This document shows, in pieces, positions 17,816-35,623 of a DNA stretch of 38,016 bases. Under the pieces are notes generated by a model. That model had not been told where the DNA came from. It did not search any database and was given only the letters and a program-made list of their open reading frames with translations. Source of the stretch: Gemmatimonadales bacterium (GTDB lineage Bacteria > Gemmatimonadota > Gemmatimonadetes > Gemmatimonadales > GWC2-71-9); NCBI GenBank assembly GCA_035278325.1, contig DATEJD010000085.1, positions 1-38,016 on the forward strand, given 5' to 3'. The position numbers were made by a program, and so were the translations under genes. Each line of letters begins with the position of its first letter. The first letter of the stretch is position 1.

Positions 17816-17972
17816 GCTCGAGCTCCTTCGGCGATGGTGGTCGGGAGTGTCTGCCTCCCAGATTCGATGTCGTCGAAGGACTCAACGTGCGGGACCGCGG
17901 ACTCTTCTCACTGCCCAGGATGGGGCGGCCGGCCGGACCGGGTTTGCGGCAGTAGCCAACCACCTTTGAACC

Positions 17973-18371
17973 TCAAGACTTTCCCATGACGAACGTGAAC
18001 CGCTGTTGGTTCTTCATTCGCACCGGCTGTCCCTGCTTGCGTGCCGGCGCGAATCGGGCGTGCAACACCGCCTGCACGGCCGGTCGTTCGAACAGGAAGT
18101 GATTGCTCCGAAGGACGTGGACCGAGGCGGGCTCGGCTCGCCCATCGACTCCGACCACATACTCGAGAACGACCCGTCCGTCGTACCCCAGACCGCGTGC
18201 TGCGTCCGGGCACTTGGGCGGCGGCATACGAATTACGCGGGCAGGAGCATCGACCTCGGTCTCGGAAAAGACTGGGCCGTCGGGCGCCGGTGCAGCCGTC
18301 GAGAGTGGGCGCTGGCATGCTAGCATCAGGACAGCCGAGGCGATGAGAGTCGTCCAGTGCGGCAGGTGCAT
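17973..18371 (-). CDS. TonB C-terminal-domain-like lipoprotein
   Basis: Signal LIASAVLMLAC. P-x-YP-like segment (PPPKCPDAARGLGYDGRVVLEYVVGVDGRAEPASVHVLRS...AVQAVLHARFAPARKQGQPV) is typical of the TonB_C fold. Confidence 0.6.
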   Translation of the reverse strand: MHLPHWTTLIASAVLMLACQRPLSTAAPAPDGPVFSETEVDAPARVIRMPPPKCPDAARGLGYDGRVVLEYVVGVDGRAEPASVHVLRSNHFLFERPAVQAVLHARFAPARKQGQPVRMKNQQRFTFVMGKS

Positions 18372-18401
18372 ACGGGACTCCTCGGGCTCACTCTGGTATC
18401 A

Positions 18402-18462
18402 GCGAACGATCAGCCGACCCTTGAGCTTCTTCACGGGTGTCGCTGGCATTTGCGGCTTAGCC
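18402..18462 (-). repeat. Repeat-family copy V: complete imperfect palindrome (both arms)
   Basis: Plus strand: gcgaacgatcagccgaccc-(14 nt)-gggtgtcgctggcatttgcggcttagcc. The right arm matches the family core (compare ggcctgtcggctgcatttgcgggttaggc). The arms pair CCC/GGG, GAC/GTC and CAGC/GCTG, with single-base bulges. It starts 9 nt after the stop of 18471..18863. Confidence 0.7.
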
Positions 18463-18470
18463 GACCGCGG

Positions 18471-18863
18471 CTACCCCAGCGCCCCTGGCTTACTCCACTG
18501 CCAACCTACAATGCCGCCCACAAGCACGCCGGCGAGGATCGAGGCGCCTGGGTGGGAGTCGAGTCCATCCACCGCCACCGTGACCGCGCTGTAGACGGCC
18601 GGGCCAACCACTACACCGAGGACAAGCCCTCCCAGCCTTCCCCAGAGCAGGGGGCGGACGACCGCGAACAACAGCCCGCCTATCAGGCCTCCCAGGTAGT
18701 ACCCGCGGATCACGGACCAGGTTGACACGTGGTACGTGGGATTCCAGTCCGAGCCCCGAACGAGCGCAAGCACCCCGACGAACGCCGAGAACAGAGTGGC
18801 CAGGCCGAGGCCATAGAGCATGCCCCAACGGAAGCTGTGCGTGATGTTCGGGTCGCGGCGCAT
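18471..18863 (-). CDS. Membrane protein, unknown function (4 TM)
   Basis: Starts at ATG 18863 (MRRDPNITHSFRWGMLYGLGLATLFSAFVGVLALV...). Gly-rich TM helices. Confidence 0.5.
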   Translation of the reverse strand: MRRDPNITHSFRWGMLYGLGLATLFSAFVGVLALVRGSDWNPTYHVSTWSVIRGYYLGGLIGGLLFAVVRPLLWGRLGGLVLGVVVGPAVYSAVTVAVDGLDSHPGASILAGVLVGGIVGWQWSKPGALG

Positions 18864-18870
18864 GGCTCTC

Positions 18871-18897
18871 CTAGGCTGCACCTGCGCGTTCAGGCGG
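18871..18897 (-). repeat. Repeat-family copy U (overlaps the stop of 18890..19363 and reaches the next gene RBS)
   Basis: The minus strand reads ACCGCCTGAACGCGCAGGTGCAGCCTAGGAGAGCC. Compare copy G, GCTGCCTAACCCGCGCATGCAGCCGATAGGGCC. Confidence 0.65.
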
Positions 18898-19363
18898 TCC
18901 GCGCTTCCCACCAACCCAGCGGCCGGTCCTGACGATCGTAGACGTTCCCATACGTCCAGCTCGAGCCGCCCAGCTCCGCGACGGCCGCGTCCAGCTCCGT
19001 CTCGACCCGCGCAAACCCCGCGCTGACCGGGACGGTCAGAATCCGAAGCCTGGTGTTCCCGCCATCGAGGTAGCCGCCCAGCGATGTGGCCGCTCGACTG
19101 AGGCGCTCGTCAGTCTGGACGGGCGGTGGCTCGGGAACATAGACCCAGATGCACAACTGCCCTCCACGCCGAATCATGCGGTACCCCGTCGGGTCGGCCG
19201 GGGCGAGCTCCAGCTCATCGCCCGCCGCAACGCCCTCGACCAGTCCTGGAGAGGCCAGGAGCCGATAGCGGCCCCCGCCGAGCGGCTCTGCGGGCACGAC
19301 CTCCTCCACCGTCCGCTGCCCGGAACGGTCGAGGGCTGGGAGCCGGATCTCGTTCATCGACAT
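18890..19363 (-). CDS. DUF4265-like protein
   Basis: 157 aa: EPLGGGRYRLLASPGLVEGVAAGDELEL...IWVYV. The two-domain layout is recalled for DUF4265. The family assignment is from memory. Confidence 0.5.
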   Translation of the reverse strand: MSMNEIRLPALDRSGQRTVEEVVPAEPLGGGRYRLLASPGLVEGVAAGDELELAPADPTGYRMIRRGGQLCIWVYVPEPPPVQTDERLSRAATSLGGYLDGGNTRLRILTVPVSAGFARVETELDAAVAELGGSSWTYGNVYDRQDRPLGWWEARTA

Positions 19364-19373
19364 AGCGGGTGGG

Positions 19374-19730
19374 TTAGACGGCGCGCGCGACCGGTGCCGG
19401 GGCCAGGTCCGTCAGCTGCACCATGATGGCGGTCAACCCGGTGTCGCTGCCCTTGGCATGAACCTCCCCACGGCCGATAAACGCTCCCCGCCCGACACCG
19501 AGCGGCCGCGGCACCCCGTCGCCACCGCTGACCCAGCCGCTGCCGGCCACCACCAGGAAGAGCTGACCGAAGGTCGCTTCGTGAGGGCCGATGGCCCCGC
19601 CGGGCTCTATGCGGATGCAGTAGACATGACCCTCACCTCGGCCCTCGCCCAGCGGGAGTGCATAGGCCTCGTGGCTCTCGTAGACGGAGATCGCCGCCTC
19701 GTGACCGGGTGTGAAATCGAGTAGCTGCAT
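19374..19730 (-). CDS. Cupin domain protein
   Basis: 118 aa from ATG 19730. GGAIGPHEATFGQLFLVVAGSGWVSGGDG...GEVHAKGS is a cupin motif 1/2-like pattern. Confidence 0.7.
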   Translation of the reverse strand: MQLLDFTPGHEAAISVYESHEAYALPLGEGRGEGHVYCIRIEPGGAIGPHEATFGQLFLVVAGSGWVSGGDGVPRPLGVGRGAFIGRGEVHAKGSDTGLTAIMVQLTDLAPAPVARAV

Positions 19731-19762
19731 GGGCTGTGCTCCAAGCGAGACCTCGGTGGCGT

Positions 19763-19791
19763 CCGCCTGACATCCGCGCTCAGGCGGCAAC
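19763..19791 (-). repeat. Repeat-family copy N: short perfect hairpin variant
   Basis: CCGCCTGA-catccgcgc-TCAGGCGG: 8-bp perfect stem directly after the stop of 19791..20615. It shares tcaggcggcaac with copy A. Confidence 0.55.
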
Positions 19792-20615
19792 TAGCTCCTG
19801 ACCTCACGTATGAACCGCACCAAAGCCTGAAGTAGCTGAGCAAACCGATGCTCCTGCGCGGCGTCCGCTCCACGAAACAACAGCCATACGGAGTTGATTT
19901 CCAGCTGCACGGCAGGCACACCCATGCCAGCTACCCATTTCGTGACTGTCTGATTGGCGGAAGCCGCGAAGCGATCTTGGGAGAGGTTGGGGATTCCTTC
20001 GTTGCGTAGCGCTTCTGCGAGCCCGAGCAGAAGATCCGTGCGCCCGCGGAACGATTCTCCCCCCATGGTTCCGAAGTCGACATCGTAAGGCCTGCGCCAG
20101 TGCGATGCGTGCAGATCGATCACCAGCACCGGGTGGAGGCTATCGACGAGCGCGCGCAAGCGCCTCTTGAAGTCATTGTCATCGTAATAGTTCGGATCAA
20201 CAGGCGAGCGGTAGGCTGTATACAAGACGCTCGAGCCGGTCAGCCGTCCTAGTGTCACCGCCAGCGACCCGGAGCCAGCGTCCGCTTGCTTGATTTGACC
20301 TTCGCGGATCTGCGATGTTGCATGCGGAGCCACCAAGAGCACCCTGCCCGTGTCCAGCATCACCCTGAACCAATCTGCCTCCACGGGTGGGACCGAGTCG
20401 TAGCGAGTGGCGAGGCTGCTCTCTGCGGCGACCGCTTGAGCGACATCACCCGGTTCGATGACCGCGCGCGGAAAGACCCCCCTTGGCTCCTCCGGCCCTG
20501 CGGCCGGAGCCGGCGTGGATGCTGCTCGAGCGCAGGCGAGCATCAGGCTACAGATGACCGTCGATATGATGCACTGGAGAGCGGCGGGGATCAGGCGGCT
20601 CGCTCCCGCCGACAC
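19791..20615 (-). CDS. N-formylglutamate-amidohydrolase-family-like hydrolase, probable lipoprotein
   Basis: VLLVAPHATSQ...PVLVIDLHASHWRRPYDVDFGTMGG resembles the FGase fold (from memory). GTG 20615 gives a lipoprotein signal (RLIPAALQCIISTVICSLMLAC). ATG 20543 is an alternative start. The upstream part of track ORF ..20870 looks non-coding. Confidence 0.5.
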   Translation of the reverse strand: MSAGASRLIPAALQCIISTVICSLMLACARAASTPAPAAGPEEPRGVFPRAVIEPGDVAQAVAAESSLATRYDSVPPVEADWFRVMLDTGRVLLVAPHATSQIREGQIKQADAGSGSLAVTLGRLTGSSVLYTAYRSPVDPNYYDDNDFKRRLRALVDSLHPVLVIDLHASHWRRPYDVDFGTMGGESFRGRTDLLLGLAEALRNEGIPNLSQDRFAASANQTVTKWVAGMGVPAVQLEINSVWLLFRGADAAQEHRFAQLLQALVRFIREVRS

Positions 20616-20779
20616 TCCACGCAGACCAGTCGCTCCGCGAGCAGCACCCGCCAGCCTTGGAGCCACCCGTACAGATGCCGATCGCAGAGAATCCGGCCAC
20701 ACTGGGCACAGATCCCGCCACTCGATGGCGAGAATCGCGTCGAACACTTCTTGCACGTTAGAGCGGCGGTGGCTGTCAT
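20591..20779 (-). CDS. Small (62 aa) cross-brace zinc-finger protein with FYVE-like Cys spacing
   Basis: MTATAALTCKKCSTRFSPSSGGICAQCGRILCDRHLYGWLQGWRVLLAERLVCVECRRERAA. The spacing is CxxC-x11-CxxC-x4-CxxH-x17-CxxC. GAGG lies 8 nt upstream of the ATG. The stop lies in a GCCGCCTGA repeat-type sequence. Confidence 0.4.
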   Translation of the reverse strand: MTATAALTCKKCSTRFSPSSGGICAQCGRILCDRHLYGWLQGWRVLLAERLVCVECRRERAA

Positions 20780-21004
20780 TCCGAGCCTCGAGCAGAGATG
20801 GTGGCGCGAGCGCGAGTCTGCCTGATCCATTGCAGACGTACGCTGCGAGACGCGGACCTGCGCGCACCACATGATGTCGGTCGGGAACAGGTCCAATCTG
20901 CTGCCGGCCGGCCTCAGGCCGTCAGGCCCAGTTTGCGACAGCAAGGGGCCAAAATGCGACAACCGCGTTCCAGTATGATACGACTGAGAGCCTCCAAACC
21001 ACCC

Positions 21005-21448
21005 TCACTGCCGCCAGGCGCTTCGCCTGGTGAAGAAGTACCCCGCCACGCACCAGTCGTACGCCGCGCAGAAGCCACCATACGCGAGCGGAATGTCCGT
21101 GAGCTGGCCGGCGCCGCCAGACGCGGAGCCGAGGTGCACCGCCGCCTCGTGCACCAGGTCCCAGGCCCCATGGAGCGCGTAGCCCAGGATGAGCAGCGCG
21201 GGAAGCCGGAGTCCCAAGAGCCCGAGAACGGTGAAGACCGCGACCGCGTAGGCTTCGGGCCGGAGCGCGGAGGAGTCGCCGAAGTACCCGACGAAGACCA
21301 CATACATGCCGGCGACCGGAATGAGCAGCAGCGCAAAGAAGACCTGCTCGACGCGAGGCGAGAACCGCGACCTGGTGATCGTCACCGTGCCGATGGCAGC
21401 CAGCACGCCAATCACGACGTACCACGAGATGATCACCGTCAGCGCCAT
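21005..21448 (-). CDS. Membrane protein (4-5 TM), unknown function
   Basis: MALTVIISWYVVIGVLAAIGTV...LILGYALHGAWDLVHEAAV...; hydrophobic throughout. Confidence 0.6.
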   Translation of the reverse strand: MALTVIISWYVVIGVLAAIGTVTITRSRFSPRVEQVFFALLLIPVAGMYVVFVGYFGDSSALRPEAYAVAVFTVLGLLGLRLPALLILGYALHGAWDLVHEAAVHLGSASGGAGQLTDIPLAYGGFCAAYDWCVAGYFFTRRSAWRQ

Positions 21449-21478
21449 GGCTGCGTCCCGGGATGAGTCATTGGGTGG

Positions 21479-21850
21479 TCATCGGGCCCGGCGGGCGAGC
21501 ACGAAGGCGGCGGTCAGAAGCAGGTGGATCACCAGGAACAGCTTGGCCTGTGGGCGCGCGCTGCCGCTGAACACGCCCCAGATGTCGTTCGCGGTGACGC
21601 AGGCGAAGCCGACGATGTTGCCGGTGACGATCGCGTTGCGGGTCGCGGACGGCTCGGCGTTTCGCGCCAGCCAGTTCATGACTGCGATCCCCACCATCGG
21701 ACCGCCCAACAGCCGGAAGAGGGTGAGCAATGCGGGTGACGCGTCGGGGGGAATGGCGTCGACGCCGAACTGCCGGGGCACGAGCATCAGTCCGATGCCG
21801 AGCAGGCCGAGGTAGATCGCCGAGACCGTCAGGACTGTCTTGAGCTTCAT
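21479..21850 (-). CDS. Small membrane protein (4 TM), unknown function
   Basis: MKLKTVLTVSAIYLGLLGIGLMLVP...; its start overlaps the stop of the upstream DUF488 gene by 4 nt. Confidence 0.6.
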   Translation of the reverse strand: MKLKTVLTVSAIYLGLLGIGLMLVPRQFGVDAIPPDASPALLTLFRLLGGPMVGIAVMNWLARNAEPSATRNAIVTGNIVGFACVTANDIWGVFSGSARPQAKLFLVIHLLLTAAFVLARRAR

Positions 21851-22395
21851 GCGTGCGGTAGCCTCCGGGGTGCAGCGCTGGCGGCATAGCTGAGCCGTCC
21901 GCGAACGATCCGCGCCGCGGCCGTGTACGGGTGCGGCGCCGTCGAGCCTGGTCCCAGGATGTGGATGACGTCGAACCGGTACCAGCGGAGCACATCAGCA
22001 ATGAGCCCGCGGTGACACCGCCACCACACCGCCTCGGCGCACATGACGGCGCTGCGGAGCCCGCACGCCAGGTTTACCAGCCGGTCCAGCCCCTCGGCGA
22101 AGGCTTCCGTCATCATGTAGTCCGCGTAGCCGCGGAAGGCTGCGCTGCGCCACGCCGTGTTCGGTGAGTCCGCTCTCGGCGAGCGCCGGCCGCCAAGCTC
22201 CGGCAGCCACTGGTAGACGAGCCCGTGCAGTTCGAGCGCCTCTGCGAGTGGCTCCCGGGCGAAGTGGGGCCATCGCCGAGAGCAGGGATAGCGCCGGACG
22301 TCGGCCACTGCCTCGATATCGTTCTGCGCGAGGATTCCGAGAAATTCCTCGAAAGGTCGCGTAGAATGCCCGATCGTCCATACGGATTCAGCCAT
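21847..22395 (-). CDS. DUF488 domain protein
   Basis: VWTIGHSTRPFEEFLGIL...VADVRRYP...LMCAEAVWWRCHRGLIADVL is characteristic of DUF488. Confidence 0.8.
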   Translation of the reverse strand: MAESVWTIGHSTRPFEEFLGILAQNDIEAVADVRRYPCSRRWPHFAREPLAEALELHGLVYQWLPELGGRRSPRADSPNTAWRSAAFRGYADYMMTEAFAEGLDRLVNLACGLRSAVMCAEAVWWRCHRGLIADVLRWYRFDVIHILGPGSTAPHPYTAAARIVRGRLSYAASAAPRRLPHA

Positions 22396-22451
22396 TTCTA
22401 CCTGTATAGCCCCTGCTTGCGCTCACGATCCCATTCACGCCGCCTCGATCA

Positions 22452-23057
22452 CTATGCCGGACAACGGCGTGCTCCCGACGACCGCCCACCGGCCGCGTGC
22501 TCGATCGCTTGGGATACCTGATCCGCCATCCAGGCCCCGCCCCGCTCGGCGAGCTTGGCCGCGAGCTCGGGGGTCAGCTCGATGCCCTTGAGCTCGACGA
22601 TTCGATTGCTGATGACCAGGGTATCCCGGACCCGCACCACCTGGGCTTGGAGATCGGTCACCCATGGGCTCGCCCGGTTCAGCCGGGGGATGATCACCCA
22701 GTCCGCCTCCGATGGGCCGACGAGGTGCACCGCCACGTCCGGGTGCGCGTAGAGATACCCCGCTCCAAGCTCGGCCGCCGCCTCCGCCGCGGAGTCCACT
22801 GGCACGACCTGGTAGCCGCAGTCAGTGGCCAGACGCTGGCGCAATGCGTCGCCGAGGACCCGGAGCCGATTCGGAAGGTCCGGGTTGGGGGGCTGGTTCG
22901 CCAGATTGTTCAGCGCGATGGTCAGGACCGCGACGCGCACGGGGGGTGAAGGCGCGAGGCTGATGCCCAGGGCCAGCGGCAAGATTCCGATAAGGGACAG
23001 GTAGCGTGCCGGTGTCAACGGACCTCCTGAGATAGGCTCCGGCCCTTCATGGGGCAC
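22452..23057 (-). CDS. Hypothetical secreted or membrane-anchored protein
   Basis: N-terminal hydrophobic segment YLSLIGILPLALGISLA. No confident family. Confidence 0.45.
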   Translation of the reverse strand: MPHEGPEPISGGPLTPARYLSLIGILPLALGISLAPSPPVRVAVLTIALNNLANQPPNPDLPNRLRVLGDALRQRLATDCGYQVVPVDSAAEAAAELGAGYLYAHPDVAVHLVGPSEADWVIIPRLNRASPWVTDLQAQVVRVRDTLVISNRIVELKGIELTPELAAKLAERGGAWMADQVSQAIEHAAGGRSSGARRCPA

Positions 23058-23129
23058 TCACCACGAGTGTCTCCGCCTGGACCATTCCGGGACGGCTCCC
23101 ACGCGCCTCCGCCGCCCTCGACAGCACCT

Positions 23130-23933
23130 CTAGCGCCGTACTCGGTCCGTCGGCCCCGGCTTGCGCGCGTACCCGATGTAGGAGACCGAGCTGTCGGAGC
23201 TTTCGCCCACATCCATCTCCCGGACAGCGGCCGCATGGCTGAGAAGGCCTCGCTTGCGCCGGCGCAGGGTTCGAACCAGGCGGAGCGGGTTAGCCCGAGG
23301 CTTGAGCCCGGTCAGCCCGCCCGGCACAAGACCCTGGTGCTTCAACTCCTGCCGGAGCTCGGCTGGGCGAATGAACATATGCCAGTCATGCAGGCGCGGC
23401 GGCATCAGGGCGGTCCACCGCCACTCTTGCAGCAGCTTGATCATGATCAGCCGGCTCCGGCGGGTGCGGTTGATGGTATCGTAGAAGTACGTTCCCCCGG
23501 GCCTGAGCACGCGAGCGGTTTCCGCGATGACCCGCCGCCAGTCGGTCACATGCTCCAGCACATCACAGCAATACACGATATCGAAGCTTTCGTCCCCGAA
23601 GGGGAGCGCCTCCCCCACCGCACACTGGTACCCAATGGCAAGCCGTTGACCGGCGGCACGAGCCCGGGCCGCCGCCAGCGACTCGACGGATGGGTCCACT
23701 CCCATGACAGCGCAGCCCAGGCGGGCGAACTCCTCTGCCAGCAACCCCCCGCCACAGCCGATATCCAAGGCGCGTAGGCCGGCTGGTGGCAGCCGCAGCT
23801 CGTCAACGAGCACGCGCCGCATGTAGCCGAACCGTGCGGGATTGAGGGCGGCCAGCGTGTGCAGCAACCCGCTCTCGTCCCACCAGCCTTCGGCCATCCG
23901 ATCGTATATCGCGTTGTCTACAGGCATCAGCAC
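23130..23933 (-). CDS. Class I SAM-dependent methyltransferase (UbiG-like)
   Basis: YDRMAEGWWDESG...LNPARFGYM...ALDIGCGGGLLAEEFARLGCAVMGVDPS (motif I)...VYCCDVLEHV...LRPGG. Confidence 0.8.
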   Translation of the reverse strand: MLMPVDNAIYDRMAEGWWDESGLLHTLAALNPARFGYMRRVLVDELRLPPAGLRALDIGCGGGLLAEEFARLGCAVMGVDPSVESLAAARARAAGQRLAIGYQCAVGEALPFGDESFDIVYCCDVLEHVTDWRRVIAETARVLRPGGTYFYDTINRTRRSRLIMIKLLQEWRWTALMPPRLHDWHMFIRPAELRQELKHQGLVPGGLTGLKPRANPLRLVRTLRRRKRGLLSHAAAVREMDVGESSDSSVSYIGYARKPGPTDRVRR

Positions 23934-24160
23934 CGACGCCAGGGTGTGATATCACGGGGAATCTACCTGGACGGAATCTCGCAGCTCCGTGCGCGGGTTC
24001 GACAGCGGCGCCGCTCTGGAGTCCCGGGCAAAGTGAGAACGATCGCCGGTTCCGCTCGTCATTCCCTGGGGTTGGCCGCCTCGACCGGGGCTGGCCCGCG
24101 CCGGCGCCAGCGCCGCGCACATACTCAGAGCCTTCAGGTCCTTTCCCATTGGAGAGCCTC

Positions 24161-28530: not shown

Positions 28531-28585
28531 AGGGCGGTCGGTTTGCGTGATGCGCGCACCTGCGCGGTCCGATGGCCAATCCTGC

Positions 28586-28611
28586 GACCCAAAGCCGCCA
28601 CAGCTTGGGTC
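28586..28611 (-). terminator. Hairpin downstream of the small membrane protein gene
   Basis: Minus strand GACCCAAGC-tgtggcg-GC(T)TTGGGTC: 9 bp with one bulge, 10 nt after the stop at 28621. Confidence 0.4.
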
Positions 28612-28620
28612 TCCGCCTTC

Positions 28621-28788
28621 TCATTGAGGCTTCAGGAACCTGAAGTAGAAGGCTGCGAAGACCAGGACGATCCCTACGTTCACCGTCAGGCGCTCCCAGA
28701 ACCGGTGCTTGAAGAATAGGACATCGATCGCGACGATAACGGCTGCCATCGAGACTGCGTAGACCGCGGTGATGGCCTGCGTTCGCAT
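28621..28788 (-). CDS. Small membrane protein (55 aa, 2 TM)
   Basis: AAGGGAG RBS. MRTQAITAVYAVSMAAVIVAIDVLFFKHRFWERLTVNVGIVLVFAAFYFRFLKPQ. Confidence 0.5.
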   Translation of the reverse strand: MRTQAITAVYAVSMAAVIVAIDVLFFKHRFWERLTVNVGIVLVFAAFYFRFLKPQ

Positions 28789-28897
28789 GTCAGCTCCCTT
28801 CGAATTGCTCGGCGCTCCCAAGGCTGTGACATAGAGCAGGTCGGGAAGCGGCGTCATGAACGTTCCCTCGCATGATGGTCAGGCGGTTCGGTGGCAC

Positions 28898-30007
28898 TTA
28901 TGGTTGCCGAAACCGCCAAATGCCGGCCGTGTTGTGGTTAGCGTCTGAATACCCGCCAGCGATGAAGACGTCGCCTCCCCCGAGAGGTGCTGCAGCGGCA
29001 AAGCGGAACGCATGGGGGAAGCCTCCCGCCACCGCGCGGAAGGTCCAGCTTCCGGCATCGAGCAGCTCCGCGACCTCTGCGCCGGACGGGACGAGGACAT
29101 CGCCATGGGGCAGCAAGACCGACGTCCCCGCGATCTTGTATCGCCGATGGGCCATCCTCGGCCCGTCCTCGAATCTGGCCGTCCGAGGATCGTAGATCTC
29201 GGTCGTCGCGTAATACACGCGATCGGTCCTGTCCGCCCCGCCGATCACCAGGACACGGCCATCCGCCAGCTTGATCGCGTCATGCTTGTGCCGCGCCGTG
29301 CCGAGCGTGCCCGCCGGCTCGAATCGACGGGTTTGCGGCGAGAAGGCCTCCGCGCTCGCGTACACCTCCATGTTCTGCCGGCGCCCGGCATGCCCACCGA
29401 CGATGAGCACCCGCCCGCCATCGAGCAGTGTCGCCGTATGACTCTCGCGTGGCACGGCCATGGAGCCGACGCGTTCCGAGCGTCCGGTCTCAGGATCGTA
29501 CAGCTCCGCGGTACGGAGGAACGTCCAGCCTCGACCAACCCCGCCGACGAACAGGACCCGGCCGTCGGGCAGGAGCGTCGCCGTGTGTCCGCTGCGCCCC
29601 TCGGTGAGCGAACCCGCCGGTCGAAAGCGCCTGGTTGACGGATCAAAGACCTCCACGGACGCGAGATATTCCCCGTTGTAGCCTCCGGCGACGAGTACGC
29701 GACCATCACCGAGCAGGGTGGCGGTGTGGCCGACTCTGCGCTCGGTCAGCGGGCCGAGTGGCTGCACGCTATTGTCGGCGGGGTCGAAGAGCTCGACAGT
29801 GGCGAGGCTGCCGCCCCCGTCCGCCATTCCTCCCACCACCAGGACCTGCCCGCCTGGAAGCGCGGTCGCGGTATGTGCCGCTCGAGCAGTTCGCAGGGTG
29901 GCCACCTGCTCAATCGATTGTGGGTGCTCGGCTGGATCGGGCGCGGACGGCGCGGGGATCGCCAGGCACGCAAGGCTGGCCATCCGTAGGAGGGTGATGA
30001 ACGACAT
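28898..30007 (-). CDS. Kelch-repeat beta-propeller protein, secreted
   Basis: GGAGG RBS before ATG 30007 and signal MSFITLLRMASLACLAIPAPSA. At least six repeats of the ...R.GHTATLL.DGRVLV.GG... type. Confidence 0.8.
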   Translation of the reverse strand: MSFITLLRMASLACLAIPAPSAPDPAEHPQSIEQVATLRTARAAHTATALPGGQVLVVGGMADGGGSLATVELFDPADNSVQPLGPLTERRVGHTATLLGDGRVLVAGGYNGEYLASVEVFDPSTRRFRPAGSLTEGRSGHTATLLPDGRVLFVGGVGRGWTFLRTAELYDPETGRSERVGSMAVPRESHTATLLDGGRVLIVGGHAGRRQNMEVYASAEAFSPQTRRFEPAGTLGTARHKHDAIKLADGRVLVIGGADRTDRVYYATTEIYDPRTARFEDGPRMAHRRYKIAGTSVLLPHGDVLVPSGAEVAELLDAGSWTFRAVAGGFPHAFRFAAAAPLGGGDVFIAGGYSDANHNTAGIWRFRQP

Positions 30008-30035
30008 GGTGCCTCCACGCTTCAACTGACGCGGT

Positions 30036-30887
30036 TCAGGCAGCTCCGGCAGGCGCCGCAGGGTCCTGGCCATAGTAGCGGCGTAAGGCGTCGTACAGAG
30101 CCGGACGCTCTTGCTGTAACTCCGCTGGCCGCTCGAAGAAGCTCTCAGTGGCCACCGCGAAGAATTCAGCCTTGTTCGTAGCGCCGTAGTGGTCCAGCAC
30201 CCCTTGCCTCTCAGCCACTGCCTCGCTCACGAGCTGGTCGAAGTTCATTTCCAGCATGGCAGTCCAAGACGCCAGGGCCGTCGCGTCGGGGAGACGGGGC
30301 GTACCATCAAACTGTCCGCTCGTCGCGTCCAGCTGATGGGCAAACTCGTGCAACACCACGTTCTCCCCATCAGTCGGGTCCTGCGCGCCGGCCTCGGCAC
30401 TATCCCATGCCAGGATGACTACACCCTGCTTCCACGACTCTCCAAGTGCGGGAGCGTCCTGGTCGCCGGCATCGGCCGACGGCGTCCAGCTGAAACGCCG
30501 TGGCTGAAAGGTGCCGGGATAAACCAGAATGTTGCGGAGGCTCGGGTACGGCTCCCCCGGCTGCTCGAGGACCAGGAGACACGCGTGCGCAGCGATAACG
30601 ACCTGCATCTCTTCAGTCAGCCGAAGACCACCGCAGCCTTCCCAGCGACAGCCGTGGATGAGGTATTGCATCTTCTGGAGCAGGCGCTCGCGCTGGACGG
30701 ATGTAAGCCGGTGCGTGAGCGGCACCCGCGTGGTCAGAATCGACGTCCAGAAGCCGGGCACGGGGGGGTAGGCAGATGCTCGAGGGCGAGGACCAAGCAG
30801 CAGTCGCAGCAGTGCAGCGCGGCCGACAGCAAAGGCCCCGGCAAACATCCCGCTCGCGATCAGCATGACCAGAAGCCGGATTAGCAC
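30036..30887 (-). CDS. mtfA: MtfA-like zinc peptidase (M90 family) with N-terminal TM anchor
   Basis: HEFAHQLD zinc motif. NKAEFFAVATESFFERP and ELYDALRRYYGQDP-type C-terminus are typical of MtfA/M90. Confidence 0.8.
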   Translation of the reverse strand: MLIRLLVMLIASGMFAGAFAVGRAALLRLLLGPRPRASAYPPVPGFWTSILTTRVPLTHRLTSVQRERLLQKMQYLIHGCRWEGCGGLRLTEEMQVVIAAHACLLVLEQPGEPYPSLRNILVYPGTFQPRRFSWTPSADAGDQDAPALGESWKQGVVILAWDSAEAGAQDPTDGENVVLHEFAHQLDATSGQFDGTPRLPDATALASWTAMLEMNFDQLVSEAVAERQGVLDHYGATNKAEFFAVATESFFERPAELQQERPALYDALRRYYGQDPAAPAGAA

Positions 30888-30995
30888 GTTATGGTGGGCC
30901 CTGATGGTTCAACGACACTTGGCATCCTGTACGCGACGGCACCCGGAACAAGCTGCAACGTCCGCCTCTCATAGGCAAAGGCCTCGGTTTCCCTA

Positions 30996-31024
30996 TTGCG
31001 CGCCGTCTGCCCTTGCAGTATACT
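30996..31024 (+). promoter_or_regulatory. Candidate sigma-70-type promoter giving a leaderless arsR-family transcript
   Basis: TTGCGC (30996-31001), 17-nt spacer, TATACT (31019-31024). ATG 31032 lies 7 nt after the -10 box and there is no SD sequence. Confidence 0.35.
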
Positions 31025-31031
31025 GAACCGC

Positions 31032-31397
31032 ATGGTTCACTATCAGCCAACCCACCTGGATTCCTCGTTCGCCGCGCTCTCCGACGCCACCCGGCGTGGC
31101 ATTCTGGAGCGGCTCGGGCGGGGGGACGCTTCGATAACGGAACTTGCCGGGAAGTTCCAAATGACCCTCACCGGCATGAAGAAGCACATCGGTGTCCTGG
31201 AGCAGACGGGGCTCGTCACCACGGAAAAAGCCGGCCGCGTGCGGACCTGCAAGCTCGGCCCACGCCGGCTGGAGGAGGAGGCGGCGTGGATCGAAAGGTA
31301 CCGCCAGCTCTGGCACGCGCGCTTCGAGGAGTTGGACAAGATCATTGAGGAACTGAAACGGACCGAAAGAGTCCATCCCCGGCAACGGAGAAAGTGA
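31032..31397 (+). CDS. ArsR/SmtB-family transcriptional regulator
   Basis: FAALSDATRRGILERLGRGDASITELAGKFQMTLTGMKKHIGVLEQTGLV is a wHTH of the ArsR family. Confidence 0.85.
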   Translation: MVHYQPTHLDSSFAALSDATRRGILERLGRGDASITELAGKFQMTLTGMKKHIGVLEQTGLVTTEKAGRVRTCKLGPRRLEEEAAWIERYRQLWHARFEELDKIIEELKRTERVHPRQRRK

Positions 31398-31407
31398 GTC
31401 AATCCTA

Positions 31408-31908
31408 GTGAACAACCCCACGACGATAGAACGAAAGTCCGAGCGTGAGCTGGTCATCACGCGAACCTTCAACGGCCCCGCGCATATCGTGTTCGAGGCC
31501 TGGACCAAGCCTGAGTTGATCAAGCGCTGGTGGATGCCGAAGTCGGTGGGAGCATCGTTCATTTCCTGCGAGGTCGATGCTCGTACGGGGGGGACCTACC
31601 GCTTCGTGTTCAGTCACCCTGCCTTCGACCAGCCTATGGCGTTCTTCGGCAGGTATGTCGAAGTGACGCGCTACTCGCGCATCGTGTGGACGAATGAGGA
31701 AAGTGCCGATGGCGCCCTTACCACCGTGACCTTTGAGGAAAACGGCGGCAAGACGCTCCTGGTCCTCCACGAACTCTATCCCTCAAAGCAAGCCCTGGAT
31801 GACGCTATCGCATCTGGAAGCACGAGCGCGGCACCCGAACAGTTCGAGCAGTTGGACGAGACTCTCGCCACGTTGGTGGCTTCTGAGAAAGCGCATTCTC
31901 GAGCCTGA
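31408..31908 (+). CDS. SRPBCC-family protein (AHSA1 / activator of Hsp90 ATPase-like)
   Basis: ELVITRTFNGPAHIVFEAWTKPELIKRWW...GGTYRFVF...FFGRYVEV...RIVWT. GTG start. ArsR-SRPBCC is a common gene pairing. Confidence 0.8.
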   Translation: MNNPTTIERKSERELVITRTFNGPAHIVFEAWTKPELIKRWWMPKSVGASFISCEVDARTGGTYRFVFSHPAFDQPMAFFGRYVEVTRYSRIVWTNEESADGALTTVTFEENGGKTLLVLHELYPSKQALDDAIASGSTSAAPEQFEQLDETLATLVASEKAHSRA

Positions 31909-31966
31909 GCACGGTCGCGGCGAGCCGGTGGTGTTGCTTCACGGTGCGTTCATGACCATCACCAGC
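31895..31966 (+). pseudogene. Possible remnant of an alpha/beta-hydrolase N-terminus
   Basis: The frame of track ORF 31733..32374 reads ILEPEHGRGEPVVLLHGAFMTITS, resembling the G-x-PVVLLHG oxyanion region. Only about 24 aa, with no start codon and no downstream domain. Confidence 0.2.
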
Positions 31967-31996
31967 CCGCTGGTTACGCTGCGCGCGGCAAGAGCG

Positions 31997-32461
31997 CTAA
32001 CCCGCCGAAGAGTCCGCCGGCGCCGGCCCCAGGTGGAGCGCCAGCATCTGCCACCCGAGGGGGCCCCCACGAACGTACACCGCCGTGTAACGGCGCCGAA
32101 GCTCGGTTCGTTGGCCCTTCAATGTGAAGGCCCATTCGGCCACGCCGGTGATTACTGCAGCGTCCTTCCGGAGCTTGACGTCGACCGCCTTGGTCCGAAA
32201 GAACTCCATGACAAGGTCAGGGGCCCGTCGGACGTCAGCCACCTCACCAGCCTTGGTCTTGAGTCGACCGGCGCTACTCGTGACCACCAGGTCGTTCGCG
32301 AAGAGCGCCTCAGCCACCGCCGTGTCATGAGTGGCATATGCCTGAGCCCACGCGCGGTCCAGCGCGTGCAGTGAGTCCCGTGCGCTCGGCGCCTGGGCCT
32401 GAGCGGTGGCGCCCGCAAAGATGAGAAGAGTCCCCGCCCAATATCGGTGTCGGATGATCAT
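31997..32461 (-). CDS. NTF2-like (DUF4440/SnoaL-like) secreted protein
   Basis: Signal MIIRHRYWAGTLLIFAGATAQA. LDRAWAQAYATHDTAVAEALFANDLVVT...YTAVYVR...GWQMLALH. Confidence 0.7.
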   Translation of the reverse strand: MIIRHRYWAGTLLIFAGATAQAQAPSARDSLHALDRAWAQAYATHDTAVAEALFANDLVVTSSAGRLKTKAGEVADVRRAPDLVMEFFRTKAVDVKLRKDAAVITGVAEWAFTLKGQRTELRRRYTAVYVRGGPLGWQMLALHLGPAPADSSAG

Positions 32462-32498
32462 CCTCCTTAAGCCGAGCGTGCGCTTGAACGCACTTCCT

Positions 32499-32539
32499 GC
32501 CCACTCCGGCCTGTCGGCTGCATTTGCGGGTTAGGCGGC
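32499..32539 (-). repeat. Repeat-family copy D (reference copy)
   Basis: Plus strand gcccactccggcctgtcggctgcatttgcgggttaggcggc. Positions 32499-32535 are identical to 33002-33038 (37 nt). GTTAGGC is at 32530-32536. The copy lies 15 nt after the stop of 32555..32950. Confidence 0.9.
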
Positions 32540-32554
32540 AAGCCGCGCCGAACC

Positions 32555-32950
32555 TTAAACCTTCTGTGGGGCCACCATGTTGGCATCCCGAAAGATGACC
32601 CACCGGCCATCGGGCTCGCGCCGCAGCACCGACAACGCCGGGCCGCTCGACTGCGTGGGGGCACCCTCATCCCCTGGCTGGAGCTCCAGCGTCAGCTGGT
32701 TCCAGCAGTACGCCCAATCGCCGAACACCCGCACTTCCTGAATCTCGGCGGTGCCCGTTACTCGTCGCTGCCCTTCCATGGCACGGGAAGCGGCCGCAAA
32801 TCCCTCCCGGCCTCGCATGGGAGGTCGGCCGGGGCCGAGGAACACGACGTCCTCAGCCATAAGCTCTAAGACCCGGGGCAAATCGCCCTGCGCAGACGCC
32901 TCCATCCAAGTCGCGACTAAAGCACGAATTGCCTGTTCGTCTCGGTCCAT
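32555..32950 (-). CDS. NTF2-like protein (SgcJ/EcaC / DUF4440 type)
   Basis: DEQAIRALVATWMEASAQGDLPRVLELMAEDVVFLGPG...VLRREPDGRWVIFRDANM. Confidence 0.75.
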   Translation of the reverse strand: MDRDEQAIRALVATWMEASAQGDLPRVLELMAEDVVFLGPGRPPMRGREGFAAASRAMEGQRRVTGTAEIQEVRVFGDWAYCWNQLTLELQPGDEGAPTQSSGPALSVLRREPDGRWVIFRDANMVAPQKV

Positions 32951-33001
32951 CGGTTCGTCCTTCCTAGAATCGGAGTCGGTCTGGCGAGAAGGCTAGCCCT
33001 G

Positions 33002-33040
33002 GCCCACTCCGGCCTGTCGGCTGCATTTGCGGGTTAGGGC
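33002..33040 (-). repeat. Repeat-family copy E
   Basis: gcccactccggcctgtcggctgcatttgcgggttagggc. The first 37 nt are identical to copy D, although the flanking genes are unrelated. It lies 18 nt after the stop of 33058..33897. Confidence 0.9.
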
Positions 33041-33057
33041 AGCACGCCACCGGGATC

Positions 33058-33897
33058 CTAGGGCACGCGGAACTGCGCGTACATTCCATGCTCGTCGTGT
33101 GGGCGTCCGTCGCCTGCGTCACGCACGCGGCAGACCGCGCTGTACCTACCCGGCTCCAAGTAGACGTCGATGAGCATGGTGCCACCGGCCGGCAGATCGG
33201 TTGTGCCGCCCCACGGCACGACAGGAGGCGGACCCTGCTGGGTGTTCATCCACCTGATGAAATCTTGCGAGCTTTTGCCCGGCGCGAGCCGTGACAGAAT
33301 CAACTCGTGGCGCTGGTGACCGAGGTTGCGGACCGCGATGCGGTGCCACCCACGGCTTGGCGGGCGCGACCACGTGAACCCGTACTCGCGCAACGTGACC
33401 GTCAGGTCGGCCGACGGCCACGCGATCGCTGGGCCGCCCGGCGGCGTCACGATCAGGTCCTTCATCATGCCTTTGGCAAAATGGAGCGCTTGATCAGGGC
33501 TCTTAACGTGGCAAAAGGCCACGTAGTGACCCGGCTCGAGCAGGACCGTGCCGACAGCCTCGCCCCCAGCTGGCACGGCGTTCGGCCCGCCGACTGCGTG
33601 CATCCAGCCGGGGTGCGCTCCGCCAGCATGGAGCGCTCTGGAGACGTCCGCCAGGCTCTTCCCGGGCGCCAGCCGGTAGAGCATGAGATGATGGGGCTGC
33701 CGGCCTTCGTTGCGCAGGCGGAATGTCGTCAAGCCTGCGGACAGCGTGTCGGGCAGCACGAACGCGAACTCGTAAGTGAGGACGTCGACCACTCGCACCT
33801 TTGGGGGTCTAGGCGGCGCTGCTTGGCCTTGTACGGCGCCGATGACCGCGACGCCTCCGAGGAGCCCGAGCAGGATCGGGCGACAATTGTGGAGCAT
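33058..33897 (-). CDS. Secreted protein with two tandem cupredoxin-like repeats
   Basis: Signal ILLGLLGGVAVIGAVQG. An internal duplication is visible: EFAFVLPDTLSAGLTTFRLRNEGRQPHHLMLYRLAPGKSLADV versus EYGFTWSRPPSRGWHRIAVRNLGHQRHELILSRLAPGKSSQDF. The fold assignment is tentative. Confidence 0.55.
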   Translation of the reverse strand: MLHNCRPILLGLLGGVAVIGAVQGQAAPPRPPKVRVVDVLTYEFAFVLPDTLSAGLTTFRLRNEGRQPHHLMLYRLAPGKSLADVSRALHAGGAHPGWMHAVGGPNAVPAGGEAVGTVLLEPGHYVAFCHVKSPDQALHFAKGMMKDLIVTPPGGPAIAWPSADLTVTLREYGFTWSRPPSRGWHRIAVRNLGHQRHELILSRLAPGKSSQDFIRWMNTQQGPPPVVPWGGTTDLPAGGTMLIDVYLEPGRYSAVCRVRDAGDGRPHDEHGMYAQFRVP

Positions 33898-33899
33898 TC

Positions 33900-34307
33900 C
33901 TATCGGCCGGCAGGCTCGAACAATTCAATGGGATTGCCGTCAGGATCTTCCACCTGAATCTGCTTGCCGCCGGGACCGACCTCCATCTCGTTGCGAAGGC
34001 GCACGGCTTGGCTCTTGAGTTCACTAATGCATGCGGGCAAGTCCTTCACTTGAAGCACCACCCGGTTCCATCCTCCGGGCTCTTGCCGACCACCATCGGG
34101 CATCGGCCGAGAGCCGGACGCCCCCGGACCACTGAGAATCAATTTGAGCTCACCGATCGACACCTGCCCGAAAGCCGGCAGGTTCTGTTGATCCACATTG
34201 AACCCCAGGACTTTCGTATAGAAGGCAATCGAGCGTTGAACATCTTTGACCTGATATCTCACGCCCCAAAGGCCTAGCACCAAGGGCTGTGTCTTCGTTG
34301 GCGCCAT
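33900..34307 (-). CDS. VOC family protein (glyoxalase I-like)
   Basis: VRYQVKDVQRSIAFYTKVLGFNV...VVLQVKDL...QVEDPDGNPIELFEP. Its stop is 2 nt from the start of the next gene. Confidence 0.8.
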   Translation of the reverse strand: MAPTKTQPLVLGLWGVRYQVKDVQRSIAFYTKVLGFNVDQQNLPAFGQVSIGELKLILSGPGASGSRPMPDGGRQEPGGWNRVVLQVKDLPACISELKSQAVRLRNEMEVGPGGKQIQVEDPDGNPIELFEPAGR

Positions 34308-34373
34308 CGTGTTGTCCTCGCTCTCGCTTCCGTTGTTCGGCCTCTAGGAGGGTGACGCCCGAGCGGACCGCCG

Positions 34374-34413
34374 GCCCACCTGGCCTGTCGGCTGCATGTG
34401 CGGGTGAGGCGGC
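34374..34413 (-). repeat. Repeat-family copy F
   Basis: gcccacctggcctgtcggctgcatgtgcgggtgaggcggc, 6 nt after the stop of 34418..34849. Confidence 0.85.
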
Positions 34414-34417
34414 ACCG

Positions 34418-34849
34418 CTACTCGATGCGGGCCACCACCTCCGTGGTCCATGGACAAAAGCGGTTCCCGGCTACGACGTCCCGTGGGCACCCGTCACAGA
34501 GCTCTATGGTGACCGAAGAGAAGACAATCGACGACGGATCGTAATGCCACTCGTAAGGCGGATTGTAACCTCCGCTACCCGCGAGGGTCAGGCCGCTGAT
34601 GATCAGGCCCTCGCCGCGCCCGATCCGCTCGGTCGCCTGGGCGACGACAGCCGGCTCTACAATCCGCACATGAAACGCCTGCCCGGCCGGCGAACCCTCT
34701 GACCCGCGACAAGCCATCACTTCAAAAAGGGCTCCGTGCGGCGGAATCGGCTGTGAGCCGGGCTCACTGGGGTCCGCGCACGAGGGCGCGATCGCCGCCA
34801 GACTCACTAGCAGAGCGCCCCGGATGGTTCTAACGCCTCTCGAGCACAT
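34418..34849 (-). CDS. Lipoprotein, unknown function
   Basis: Signal plus lipobox LVSLAAIAPSC. C-terminal YNPPYEWHYDPSSIVFSSVTIELCDGCP. No confident family. Confidence 0.5.
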   Translation of the reverse strand: MCSRGVRTIRGALLVSLAAIAPSCADPSEPGSQPIPPHGALFEVMACRGSEGSPAGQAFHVRIVEPAVVAQATERIGRGEGLIISGLTLAGSGGYNPPYEWHYDPSSIVFSSVTIELCDGCPRDVVAGNRFCPWTTEVVARIE

Positions 34850-34964
34850 GGAGACCCCCTGCGCGAGGTCGAGAAGGTCGATCCGAGATCGGACCCGTGA
34901 GTTACCAGTCGGCGAGGTTGAAAGCTTCTAGACGGCTTGCACCGCAGAGGTGCCGGTGGTGTCC

Positions 34965-35018
34965 GCCAACACTGGCAAATCAGCTGCAGGCCCTATCGGC
35001 TGCATGCGCGGGTTAGGC
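34965..35018 (-). repeat. Repeat-family copy G: complete 54-nt imperfect palindrome flanked by AAC...GTT
   Basis: Plus strand GCCAAC-actggcaaatcagctgcaggcc-ct-atcggctgcatgcgcgg-GTTAGGC. The minus strand reads GCCTAAC...GTTGGC. The terminal boxes pair with one bulged T. It lies 6 nt after the stop of 35026..35535. Confidence 0.85.
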
Positions 35019-35025
35019 AGCGCGC

Positions 35026-35535
35026 TCACCGGCGCGTGGCCTCGTACTGCGCAAAGCGCTTCCAACCGCCCGCCCCGTCGGCGGCATCCAGGCGGATCGC
35101 CCAGGTTTCCGTGGCTGCGTCGTAGACGAAGGTATCGTGGAACGCTCCACCCGGATACGGAAAGTCCAGAATCAGCGAGTCACCAGCGGCCACACCAGTA
35201 GCCGGCGGCACGGAGTAGGCGGCCCCAAAATTGTCGAGCCAATGCCCCAGGATCCGCCCTGAGAGAGTATCGGGGCCAATGAACACGCGAGCCTCGTACT
35301 GCGGAGGTGTGTGATGGACATCCGCCATGTGGAGCTCCACAAAGCGGTGCTGCAGAACCCAGGCGGCGTCAAGCCGATAGGTAACTGGGCGCCCGCCAAC
35401 GGTGCCCGTCATCGTCCAGTGGCCAATCAGCTTCTCGAGCAACGGAACCGCTGGAGGCGAGGCCGCGGCCTGAGCAGGCAGGCGGCTCGCGCAACAGGCT
35501 CCGACTACGATGATAAGTCCGAGGTAACGCCGCAT
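35026..35535 (-). CDS. DUF1579-like secreted protein
   Basis: Signal MRRYLGLIIVVGACCASRLPAQA. LIGHWTMTGTVGG...HWLDNFGAAY. The family is recalled from memory. Confidence 0.6.
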   Translation of the reverse strand: MRRYLGLIIVVGACCASRLPAQAAASPPAVPLLEKLIGHWTMTGTVGGRPVTYRLDAAWVLQHRFVELHMADVHHTPPQYEARVFIGPDTLSGRILGHWLDNFGAAYSVPPATGVAAGDSLILDFPYPGGAFHDTFVYDAATETWAIRLDAADGAGGWKRFAQYEATRR

Positions 35536-35566
35536 GTGAGCCCCAAGGAACGGGAGAAGCGGTCAC

Positions 35567-35623
35567 GCCGCCTAACGACGGGCAAATCAGCTGCAGGCCC
35601 TCATCTCAACGCCCGCACAAACC
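35567..35623 (+). repeat. Repeat-family copy H: inverted orientation relative to copies A-G
   Basis: Plus strand gccgCCTAACgacgggcaaatcagctgcaggccc matches the left arm of copy G (gccaacactggcaaatcagctgcaggccc). It is followed by ctcaacgcccgcacaaacc. It lies between the ADOP permease stop and the DUF1579 gene start. Confidence 0.7.

Follow-up and report, generated by a model that had tools for sequence, protein, structure and literature searches.

The question raised by contig DATEJD010000085.1 of a Gemmatimonadales bacterium (GenBank assembly GCA_035278325.1; 38,016 nucleotides, the whole of which is referred to below as the window) is what kind of element is repeated behind the small genes in its right-hand part, and how these genes came together. 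An initial annotation, made from the sequence alone, had described an element of 30-40 nt at the 3' end of nearly every gene in a 17-kb run and compared this run to an array of integron cassettes, units that each end in a recombination site, attC; a repetitive extragenic palindromic (REP)-like, terminator-like or protein-binding repeat was considered an equally live explanation. Our analysis points, with strong although not complete confidence, to the segment at ~18.4-35.6 kb being the relic, probably immobile, of a Gemmatimonadales chromosomal integron cassette array. The integron interpretation is borne out by a full-length attC family in other genomes, by arrays headed by the integron integrase IntI, and by homologs of window genes that stand as cassettes elsewhere.

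The repeat, GCCGCCTAACCCGCAAATGCAGCCGACAGGCC, occurs in the window in eight copies, all on the minus strand and just 3' of stop codons, between 18.4 and 35.0 kb. The GC content of the window is 61-74%; the consensus given by the initial annotation, searched with up to three mismatches, has four minus-strand matches compared to none expected from shuffled sequences, and a repeat finder places seven copies in one group. A core profile (nhmmer) produced eight minus-strand matches with E-values from 1e-10 to 3.5e-5 (5' ends at 32541, 33040, 34414, 35021, 27517, 28111, 18465, and 25562), the next best match anywhere having E = 2.1; these values are partly circular because the profile was built from the same eight copies. 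A profile of the 5' arm derived from external genomes only recovered six of the eight (E ≤ 6e-5), with the copy at 25560 reaching only E = 0.23 and that at 18465 missed. Each copy starts within ~25 nt of the stop of a minus-strand gene, the stop codon being located inside the copy in two cases, and the mismatches among the copies are graded, from 0 to 12. No copies were detected in the left 17 kb with either the window core profile or the external arm profiles, in agreement with the earlier observation that the block at 0.7-14.9 kb lacks them, and neither an Rfam search at gathering thresholds nor a tRNA scan of the window produced any matches.

The identity of the repeat becomes apparent from its counterparts in other genomes. 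A scan of public genomes (one genome per species, in 8-kb blocks) with the 22-nt core CCTNACCCGCNNATGCAGCCGA yielded matches in at least 120 blocks, almost all from Gemmatimonadales metagenome-assembled genomes (MAGs), with up to nine exact core matches per block. In these genomes, the repeat found in the window is only the first 30-40 nt of a unit of ~145 nt with the layout GCCGCCTAAC-CC-GC(NN)ATGCAGCCGACAGG, followed by a semi-conserved centre that includes GGAACGTAGGTTTGTGCGGGCG, and then by CCTGCAGCTGAT(NN)GC-(~8 nt)-GTTAGGC. The attC sites of integrons carry two inverse core sites, R'' (RYYYAAC) and R' (GTTRRRY). In an alignment of 70 diverse full copies (146 consensus positions), from which a covariance model was built, GCCTAAC in the R'' position and GTTAGGC in the R' position are near-invariant, and the R helix is 99.4% paired; the equation of these two boxes with R'' and R' in the initial annotation, and that of the 5' half with an R''-L'' arm, which matches the first 30-85 nt of the family, are thereby upheld. 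The RNAalifold consensus consists of a 5-bp R''/R' helix (CCTAAC/GTTAGG) and a 15-bp L''/L' helix in which G19, C24, and A26 of the 5' arm remain unpaired, with an asymmetric spacer of 2 nt on one side and ~8 nt on the other. Across the alignment, 98.5% of the cells are paired, versus 20-47% after the partners have been shifted by 1-3 columns, and there are 93 double-substitution cells versus 27.5 ± 3.9 in shuffles, none of 500 shuffles reaching 93. Covariation is seen at five pairs, among them the NN positions (GC/AU/UA at columns 15-16 and AU/GC at columns 28-30). When one representative full copy was folded, its bottom strand formed a single long bulged hairpin (-33.4 kcal/mol, z = -2.5). 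With paired inverse core sites, an imperfect, bulged L stem with a spacer, and co-oriented arrays adjoining intI, the full-length element presents the defining architecture of an integron attC site and is predicted to be one.

Several additional features of this family are worth recording. The centre of the site, which is semi-conserved around GGAACGTAGGTTTGTGCGGGCG at alignment columns ~84-122 (for example, L042:3999-4146, where, as below, L-numbers are our labels for external loci), contains TGCGGGCG that, by eye, can pair with the inner L' arm CGCCTGCA, giving a possible hairpin that rivals the L''/L' stem, so that the central box might act as a structural switch. The same arrays harbor a shorter sister subfamily of attC (~105 nt) with a different 5' arm (GCCTAACAAGCGCATGCAGCTGGCGG) and the same 3' arm (L015:6835-6766, L098:2036-2105, L056:7062-6996, and L027:4145-4211); many apparent 3'-only profile matches, those starting at position ~75, belong to this subfamily and are not remnants. 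Some core matches are labelled as other phyla, namely, L080 (Acidobacteriaceae), L039 (Dehalococcoidia), and L091 (Anaerolineales), and L070 is another outlying block with the core pattern. At least three family attC matches and two window-gene homologs lie in L080, pointing to horizontal transfer or to a Gemmatimonadales contig that was binned wrongly. The core matches in L071, L114, and L115 lack attC-like context and look like chance.

The full-length sites form arrays, and several of these arrays are headed by an integrase. The family profile produced 603 matches in 115 public blocks (among the matches listed), with up to 15 per 8-kb block, and the copies are co-oriented in 113 of the 119 sequences with matches (the 115 public blocks, the window, and three copies of the window's own contig). 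Contiguous blocks cover 128-160 and 168-192 kb of CAVSPJ010000003.1, 320-368 kb of CAWJOB010000004.1, and 3,680-3,704 kb of a 3.7-Mb contig; in the latter, the copies fall into two clusters, and other large contigs show one main stretch, among the matches listed. The check proposed in the initial annotation, whether the copies cluster or follow core genes, came out in favor of clustering, within the same set of matches. IntI homologs head the arrays in L032, L011, L020, L016, and L043 (tblastn with an IntI1 query). The longest matches, with 48-53% identity over 209-316 residues, are in the first four of these; the intI of L016 looks truncated, and that of L043, with 41% identity over the longest segment, looks frameshifted. 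The open reading frame (ORF) at L032:4113-5240 scored 413.5 bits against the NCBIfam model TIGR02249, "integron integrase" (cutoff 265). The intI genes precede the cassettes, with which they are co-oriented. In the window, tblastn searches with IntI1 and Gemmatimonadales IntI detected neither an intI gene nor a pseudogene (best E = 3.1), as had been stated from inspection, and the combination that defines a complete integron, intI with at least one attC at the same locus, is absent there.

Three contigs of long-read Gemmatimonadales MAGs contain very large chromosomal integrons, with at least 54 attC matches in ~60 kb, 21 in ~20 kb, and 24 in 24 kb (L043, L118, L054, L105, L112, L060, and L052 in CAVSPJ010000003.1, 128-192 kb; L067, L013, and L032 in CAVRFK010000001.1; L019, L079, and L020 in CAVWRM010000001.1, 3.68-3.70 Mb). 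Gemmatimonadales chromosomal integrons appear to be very large, extending over tens of kilobases with dozens of ~145-nt sites.

Compared to these arrays, the window retains fragments (Table 1). The caveat of the initial annotation that most copies lack a complementary L'-R' arm was correct and turned out to be the key to the locus: the sites are truncated remnants. The external profiles detect seven 5' arms in the window, only two 3' arms (35599-35570 and 34992-34971), and a single central box (35633-35602), with local profile coverage of hmm 1-83, 5-48 (33038-32995), 1-61, 1-30 (35021-34992), and 77-145; a further 5' part is placed at 28110-28088. The truncation points are all different (model positions 30, 33, 45, 48, 61, and 83), which speaks for deletions that occurred independently and against a different design of the site. 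The junctions, 93-110 nt long, are too short for a full attC and a 5' untranslated region (UTR), and the next ribosome-binding site (RBS) and ATG come directly after the truncation point. Single-sequence folds of the copies with 140 nt added, a covariance model search with the filters off, and the arm and central-box profiles revealed no hidden second arm downstream of the copies or inside the adjacent ORFs beyond the two 3' arms listed above. The 5'-half copies are not palindromic, and folding indicates that no conserved structure remains in them. The lineage-specific covariance model identifies one site with two real arms, two further matches with E < 1e-6 being one-sided only; no window copy combines both arms with their pairing, as a functional attC would.

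Table 1. Putative attC remnants and other features of the window, with homologs of window genes in external loci
Feature	Position or locus	Strand	Description
attC 3' part	35568-35637	-	Model positions ~77-145; 5' arm missing; upstream end of array
Sole two-armed site, 60 nt	34962-35021	-	Lacks 85 central model positions; covariance model 48.2 bits, E = 9e-10
attC 5' part	34330-34413	-	Model positions 1-83; nhmmer E = 4e-11; no L'-R' arm
attC 5' part	32995-33043	-	Model positions ~1-48; nhmmer E = 2.5e-8; no 3' arm
attC 5' part	32479-32539	-	Model positions 1-61; nhmmer E = 1.1e-9; no 3' arm
5' arm remnant, ~33 nt	28078-28110	-	External 5'-arm profile E = 6.6e-7
attC 5' part, ~45 nt	27472-27517	-	External 5'-arm profile E = 6.2e-5
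Degenerate 5' arm	25529-25562	-	Window core profile E = 3.5e-5; external profile E = 0.23
Degenerate 5' arm (probable)	18431-18465	-	9/32 mismatches; last recognisable remnant at downstream end of array
Mini-palindrome, 27 nt (possible derivative)	19762-19788 (initial annotation: 19763-19791)	-	GCCGCCTGA(9 nt)TCAGGCGGA; covariance model 11.1 bits, E = 0.24
~27 small, functionally unrelated genes	17973-35535	mostly -	Pfam scans and source-contig gene calls
MacB/FtsX-type ABC permease gene	35635-38016	-	Runs off window; Pfam MacB_PCD + FtsX
Glyoxalase homolog	L063		81% identity
YCII homolog	L025		79% identity
p66 homologs	L021, L068		82-84% identity
p226 homolog	L068		90% identity
p96a homolog	L057		71% identity
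ArsR-AHSA1 pair homologs	8 loci		29-74% identity

The individual remnants differ in what they have kept. At the upstream end, 35568-35637 starts right at the ABC permease stop codon and retains the central box GGACGCGTAGGTTTGTGCGGGCG, the L' arm CCTGCAGCTGATTTGC, and the R' box GTTAGGC (35576-35570), supported by the family profile (hmm 77-145, E = 2e-12), the 3'-arm profile (E = 7.8e-9), and the central-box profile (E = 4e-4). The site at 34962-35021 has both arms but L'' (GCGCAT) and L' (ATTTGC) show two mismatches that break two covarying pairs and are flagged by the covariance model as non-canonical; R' is GTTGGC, with one base lost, and there is essentially no loop. Judging by its sequence, this site has a hybrid appearance, as if the arms of two different sites had been joined, and the attC hairpin is not obtained on folding either strand (z = -0.06 and -0.46). 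Behind the remnant at 34330-34413, the RBS and ATG of the next gene lie within ~20 nt, and the second arm that appears in the covariance model alignment is spurious. At 27472-27517, the TGA stop of a 67-aa gene is inside the R'' box (GCCTGAC), and the remnant runs straight into the p66 cassette's 5' UTR; at 25529-25562, the stop codon of a 124-aa gene likewise falls inside R''. The sequence at 18431-18465 is a probable attC remnant, given its match to the window-derived profile, its 9 mismatches over 32 positions, and its place after a stop codon. The mini-palindrome at 19762-19788 is, at a weaker level, possibly an extreme internal-deletion derivative in which the outer R''/R' flanks alone are left. 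The remnant at 28078-28110 sits between two plus-strand genes for 96-aa ORFan proteins, 27737-28027 (+) and 28240-28530 (+), which have no Pfam match and have homologs in L057 and L064.

The mini-palindrome has a parallel in L025, just downstream of the YCII homolog (~6330); in this pair of mini-attC sites, R'' and R' are 6-9 nt apart (GGGCTAACTCGGGCGTTAGGCGGC and GCCGCCTGAGCGCGGATGTCAGGCGGA), which suggests that internal collapse to R''-R' mini-sites is a recurrent decay route for these attC sites.

Of the ten sites that the initial annotation considered strong, nine were confirmed, as was the 100% identity over 37 nt between 32499-32535 and 33002-33038. The remaining one, 18871-18897, amounts to only a weak remnant (CCGCCTGAACGCGCAGGTGCAGC) overlapping a stop codon, and the "inverted copy" at 35567-35597, although real, is actually the 3' arm (L'-R', GTTAGGC) of the same type of site in the same orientation. 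None of the seven weaker sites is individually significant: those at 26532-26556, 28870-28886, 30026-30044, and 19365-19382 are only R''-like GCCTGAAC/GTCTAAC strings at gene ends, and no support was obtained for 17938-17961 and 20584-20600. Weak R''-like strings were rejected as evidence because the bare motif GCCT[AG]A[ACG]C is too common in this GC-rich DNA and occurs elsewhere in the window. With recognisable attC remnants at ~10 of the ~27 gene junctions, the claim that nearly every gene carries the element was overstated.

Direct evidence of site deletion and cassette fusion comes from comparison with intact cassettes. The p66 homolog in L068 is flanked by full attC sites on both sides; at the one in L021, the upstream site is full and the downstream site truncated (hmm 1-103). 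The homology of the window p66 cassette (27253-27453) to these loci begins ~25 nt before the ATG, right after position ~45 of the preceding attC, so that the rest of that attC and ~35 nt of the cassette leader are gone; downstream, the homology stops where the cassette's own R'' should begin, and its own attC is lost entirely. This alignment shows that the 3' part of attC was physically deleted. The large array in L025 also contains the p131-YCII pair, decayed junction included, with a full attC located upstream and a tiny R''-R' mini-site downstream; the shared junction implies that some fusions are old, and the fused units may travel as blocks. In other genomes, there are 457 full sites, ~62 5'-only sites, and at most 44 3'-only sites (among the matches listed), partial sites thus being a minority; compared with these, the window is an unusually decayed array. 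An excess of 5'-only sites was considered as a property of the family as a whole and rejected as not clearly so, given that, in well-sampled blocks, the numbers are roughly balanced (32 5'-only versus at most 24 3'-only).

Several window genes recur in other genomes as cassettes bounded by full attC sites, and, on this sequence comparison, the genes at 17973-35535 can be taken as former gene cassettes. They encode a glyoxalase/VOC protein, two SnoaL/DUF4440 proteins, YCII, cupin, DUF488, and DUF4265 proteins, an M90 peptidase, a Kelch protein, a methyltransferase, a TonB_C protein, a reversed ArsR-AHSA1 pair, and many ORFans; the Pfam scans agree with the earlier impression that the separated genes are functionally unrelated.

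The boundaries of the array were compared with related loci. At the upstream end, model position ~77 of an attC is joined to the stop codon of the ABC permease gene. The orthologs of this permease (L124-L126, from JGI metagenomes) are 83-89% identical at the protein level, the homology ends exactly at 35636, the stop codon, and the downstream sequences are unrelated to the window and, over the first 260 nt by inspection, to each other. No attC or intI was found at these three ortholog loci, whose flanks are not conserved, which implies that the array is not ancestral at the permease position; together with the junction in the middle of an attC, this suggests that the array was joined to the permease gene by an illegitimate, non-IntI event. 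The downstream end, near 18.4 kb at the last degenerate remnant, is not sharply defined. The window matches a 38,044-bp ENA metagenome contig, on which one cassette protein is encoded identically, and two shorter, near-identical contigs from other samples that also carry it, with the same junctions; agreement of three contigs from three samples over their common parts makes an assembly artefact unlikely. There is no presence/absence variation among the three matching contigs. Paralogous MacB/FtsX-type permeases, ~30-37% identical to that of the window, are encoded in or beside attC arrays in L012 (2082-4379), L061, L025, and L085, the one in L012 being located between two attC sites.

Taken together, these observations suggest the following scenario. 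In living relatives, each cassette ends in a ~145-nt attC composed of R'', the L'' arm, the semi-conserved centre, the L' arm, and R'; by analogy with studied integrons, the bottom strand would fold into a bulged hairpin, and IntI would cut and rejoin at R', excising and inserting cassettes. In the window, as the comparison with intact homologous cassettes shows, independent small deletions removed the 3' part of attC almost everywhere, often along with the first nucleotides of the next cassette, and, in some cases, the whole attC, leaving 5' halves of 30-85 nt and fusing adjacent cassettes into fixed multi-gene units, and the array is joined to the ABC permease gene through the illegitimate mid-attC junction. 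Because a 5' arm on its own cannot fold into this hairpin, the cassettes would be immobilised, the remnants most probably being no more than inert debris; the genes themselves probably act like any resident accessory genes, each with an RBS of its own.

Four points weigh against this scenario. Both the window and the matching ~38-kb contig extend only 2.4 kb beyond the upstream end of the array and break off within the ABC permease gene, and an intI could be located further upstream or elsewhere in the genome. The 60-nt two-armed site (35021-34962) might keep some recombination activity. The description of the family as clustered and not dispersed rests on the matches listed in the genome scan. 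Finally, the window contains 7-8 5' halves compared to two 3' halves (one of them 3'-only), an imbalance that random decay leaves unexplained, although the excess is of only marginal significance (~p = 0.05, binomial estimate).

Attachment of the repeats to integrons leaves room for a different functional status, in which the locus is a still-mobilisable cluster of attC sites lacking integrases (CALIN), with unusual but functional sites recombined in trans by an IntI encoded elsewhere. Conservation of the R'' box and the L'' arm in 6-8 copies and the presence of one site with both arms are compatible with this possibility, as are the fused p131-YCII unit behind a full attC in L025, given that blocks may move if flanked by good sites, and the fact that CALINs are common and have been proposed to be mobilisable in trans (PMC4889954). 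The two 3' arms in the whole window, the failure of the remnants and of the two-armed site to fold into the family hairpin, and the mismatched L arms, defective R', and missing loop of the latter all count against it. As understood from studied integrons, attC recombination requires a folded, two-armed bottom strand, and we assign continued mobility a small probability.

The repeats could also be unrelated to integrons altogether, that is, REP-like, terminator-like or protein-binding elements that act on transcripts or on chromosome structure. This would fit their position just after stop codons, the lack of a complementary arm in most of them, and the 37-nt identity of two copies with unrelated neighbor genes; yet, the repeat is the first 30-85 nt of a ~145-nt covarying attC element that, in its full form, occurs in arrays adjoining integron integrases, and the 37-nt identity is explained by the near-invariant columns of the family alignment. 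Among the matches listed, Mb-scale contigs show one or two clusters rather than copies flanking core genes; neither the genome-wide distribution behind core genes nor the self-contained palindrome typical of REPs is observed, and no copies lie in the left 17-kb block of the window. A search of the window for intrinsic terminators (a GC-rich hairpin followed by a T run) found none within any copy, the nearest being ~70 nt downstream of the weak copy at 25560, and terminator-like sites are not enriched (5 versus 8.3 expected). With the copies clustered and no terminator coinciding with them, the equal standing initially given to this explanation is unsupported, and we consider it very improbable.

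Scarcely credible is an account of the locus by selection, whereby, after intI loss, 3' arms were purged as hairpins and R''-L'' came to serve the upstream gene through stop context or mRNA 3' stability: the preponderance of 7-8 5' halves over one 3'-only remnant and the stop codons inside R'' at 27517 and 25560 would agree with it, as would the rough symmetry of remnants in other genomes, whereas the graded divergence (0 to 12 mismatches) fits neutral decay, no two sites are truncated at the same point, the asymmetry reaches only marginal significance, and no conserved structure is left in the halves.

There is a slight chance that, within a decayed array, the 5' halves are nonetheless not neutral debris, with the crossover-bearing 3' arms preferentially purged after separation from intI, and R''-L'' kept for the stop codon or mRNA 3' end of the upstream gene. 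If true, retention of 5' halves would represent a directional route of "domestication" from mobile cassettes to fixed, operon-like units.

If the relic-array interpretation holds, an anonymous repeat gives way to a clear annotation, under which the 17-kb block is horizontally assembled accessory DNA that entered via an integron and has since been frozen. The locus would be a well-resolved case of array decay by arm deletion and cassette fusion, which bears on how integron genes become permanent residents. The half-sites may well escape generic attC searches that expect two arms; the lineage-specific attC alignment and covariance model are now available for Gemmatimonadales, an abundant but poorly studied soil group.

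Two neighboring features were noted in passing. A two-gene unit encoding an ArsR-family HTH protein and an AHSA1/SRPBCC protein, at 31032-31908 (+) on the strand opposite to the cassettes, recurs in L049, L080, L015, L103, L097, L120, L074, and L033. In the left flank, at 15430-16362 (-), a 310-aa ORF contains a CdiI_N domain (contact-dependent inhibition immunity), which hints at a polymorphic-toxin or immunity locus adjoining the array.

Compared to known systems, the locus, a probable fossil array, is of a known kind and introduces no new principle or kind of system. The Vibrio cholerae repeats (VCR) are attC sites of ~120-130 nt that belong to a sedentary chromosomal integron. The Gemmatimonadales sites resemble VCR-type sites in being long, homogeneous, and lineage-specific, in their location at cassette 3' ends, in their R''/R' core sites, in the L stem with extrahelical bases and an unpaired spacer, and in the presence of tens of co-oriented copies per intI-headed array; they differ in belonging to a different sequence family and phylum, in that intI is co-oriented rather than divergent, and, in the window, in that only 5' halves survive. 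Mobile (class 1) integrons are known to contain fused cassettes, pairs that became locked to each other when the attC between them was lost in part or in full. Loss of the crossover-bearing part of attC similarly links the window genes permanently but at most junctions of a long chromosomal array rather than at one. With REPs and bacterial interspersed mosaic elements (BIMEs), the window copies share the form of short GC-rich repeats after stop codons; unlike these genome-wide, self-contained palindromes, they are pieces of a larger recombination site and occur in arrays only. Gemmatimonadota are already on record as containing integrons (PMC8618304). By definition, a CALIN comprises two or more recognisable attC sites that cluster within 4 kb and have no intI in the vicinity; for CALINs, one proposed route of their origin is a rearrangement that separates cassettes from intI (PMC4889954). 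The window array likewise has no nearby intI and plausibly arose by such a rearrangement; with at most one two-armed site, itself defective, it appears to have decayed further than a CALIN. In Treponema, integron remnants without intI have been described, along with an atypical layout in which intI is co-oriented with the cassettes (PMC3607928). The window resembles the static attC and cassette remnants left after intI loss in Treponema phagedenis, and differs in phylum, in attC family, and in that loss of the 3' arm, its mode of decay, has been traced from one junction to the next.

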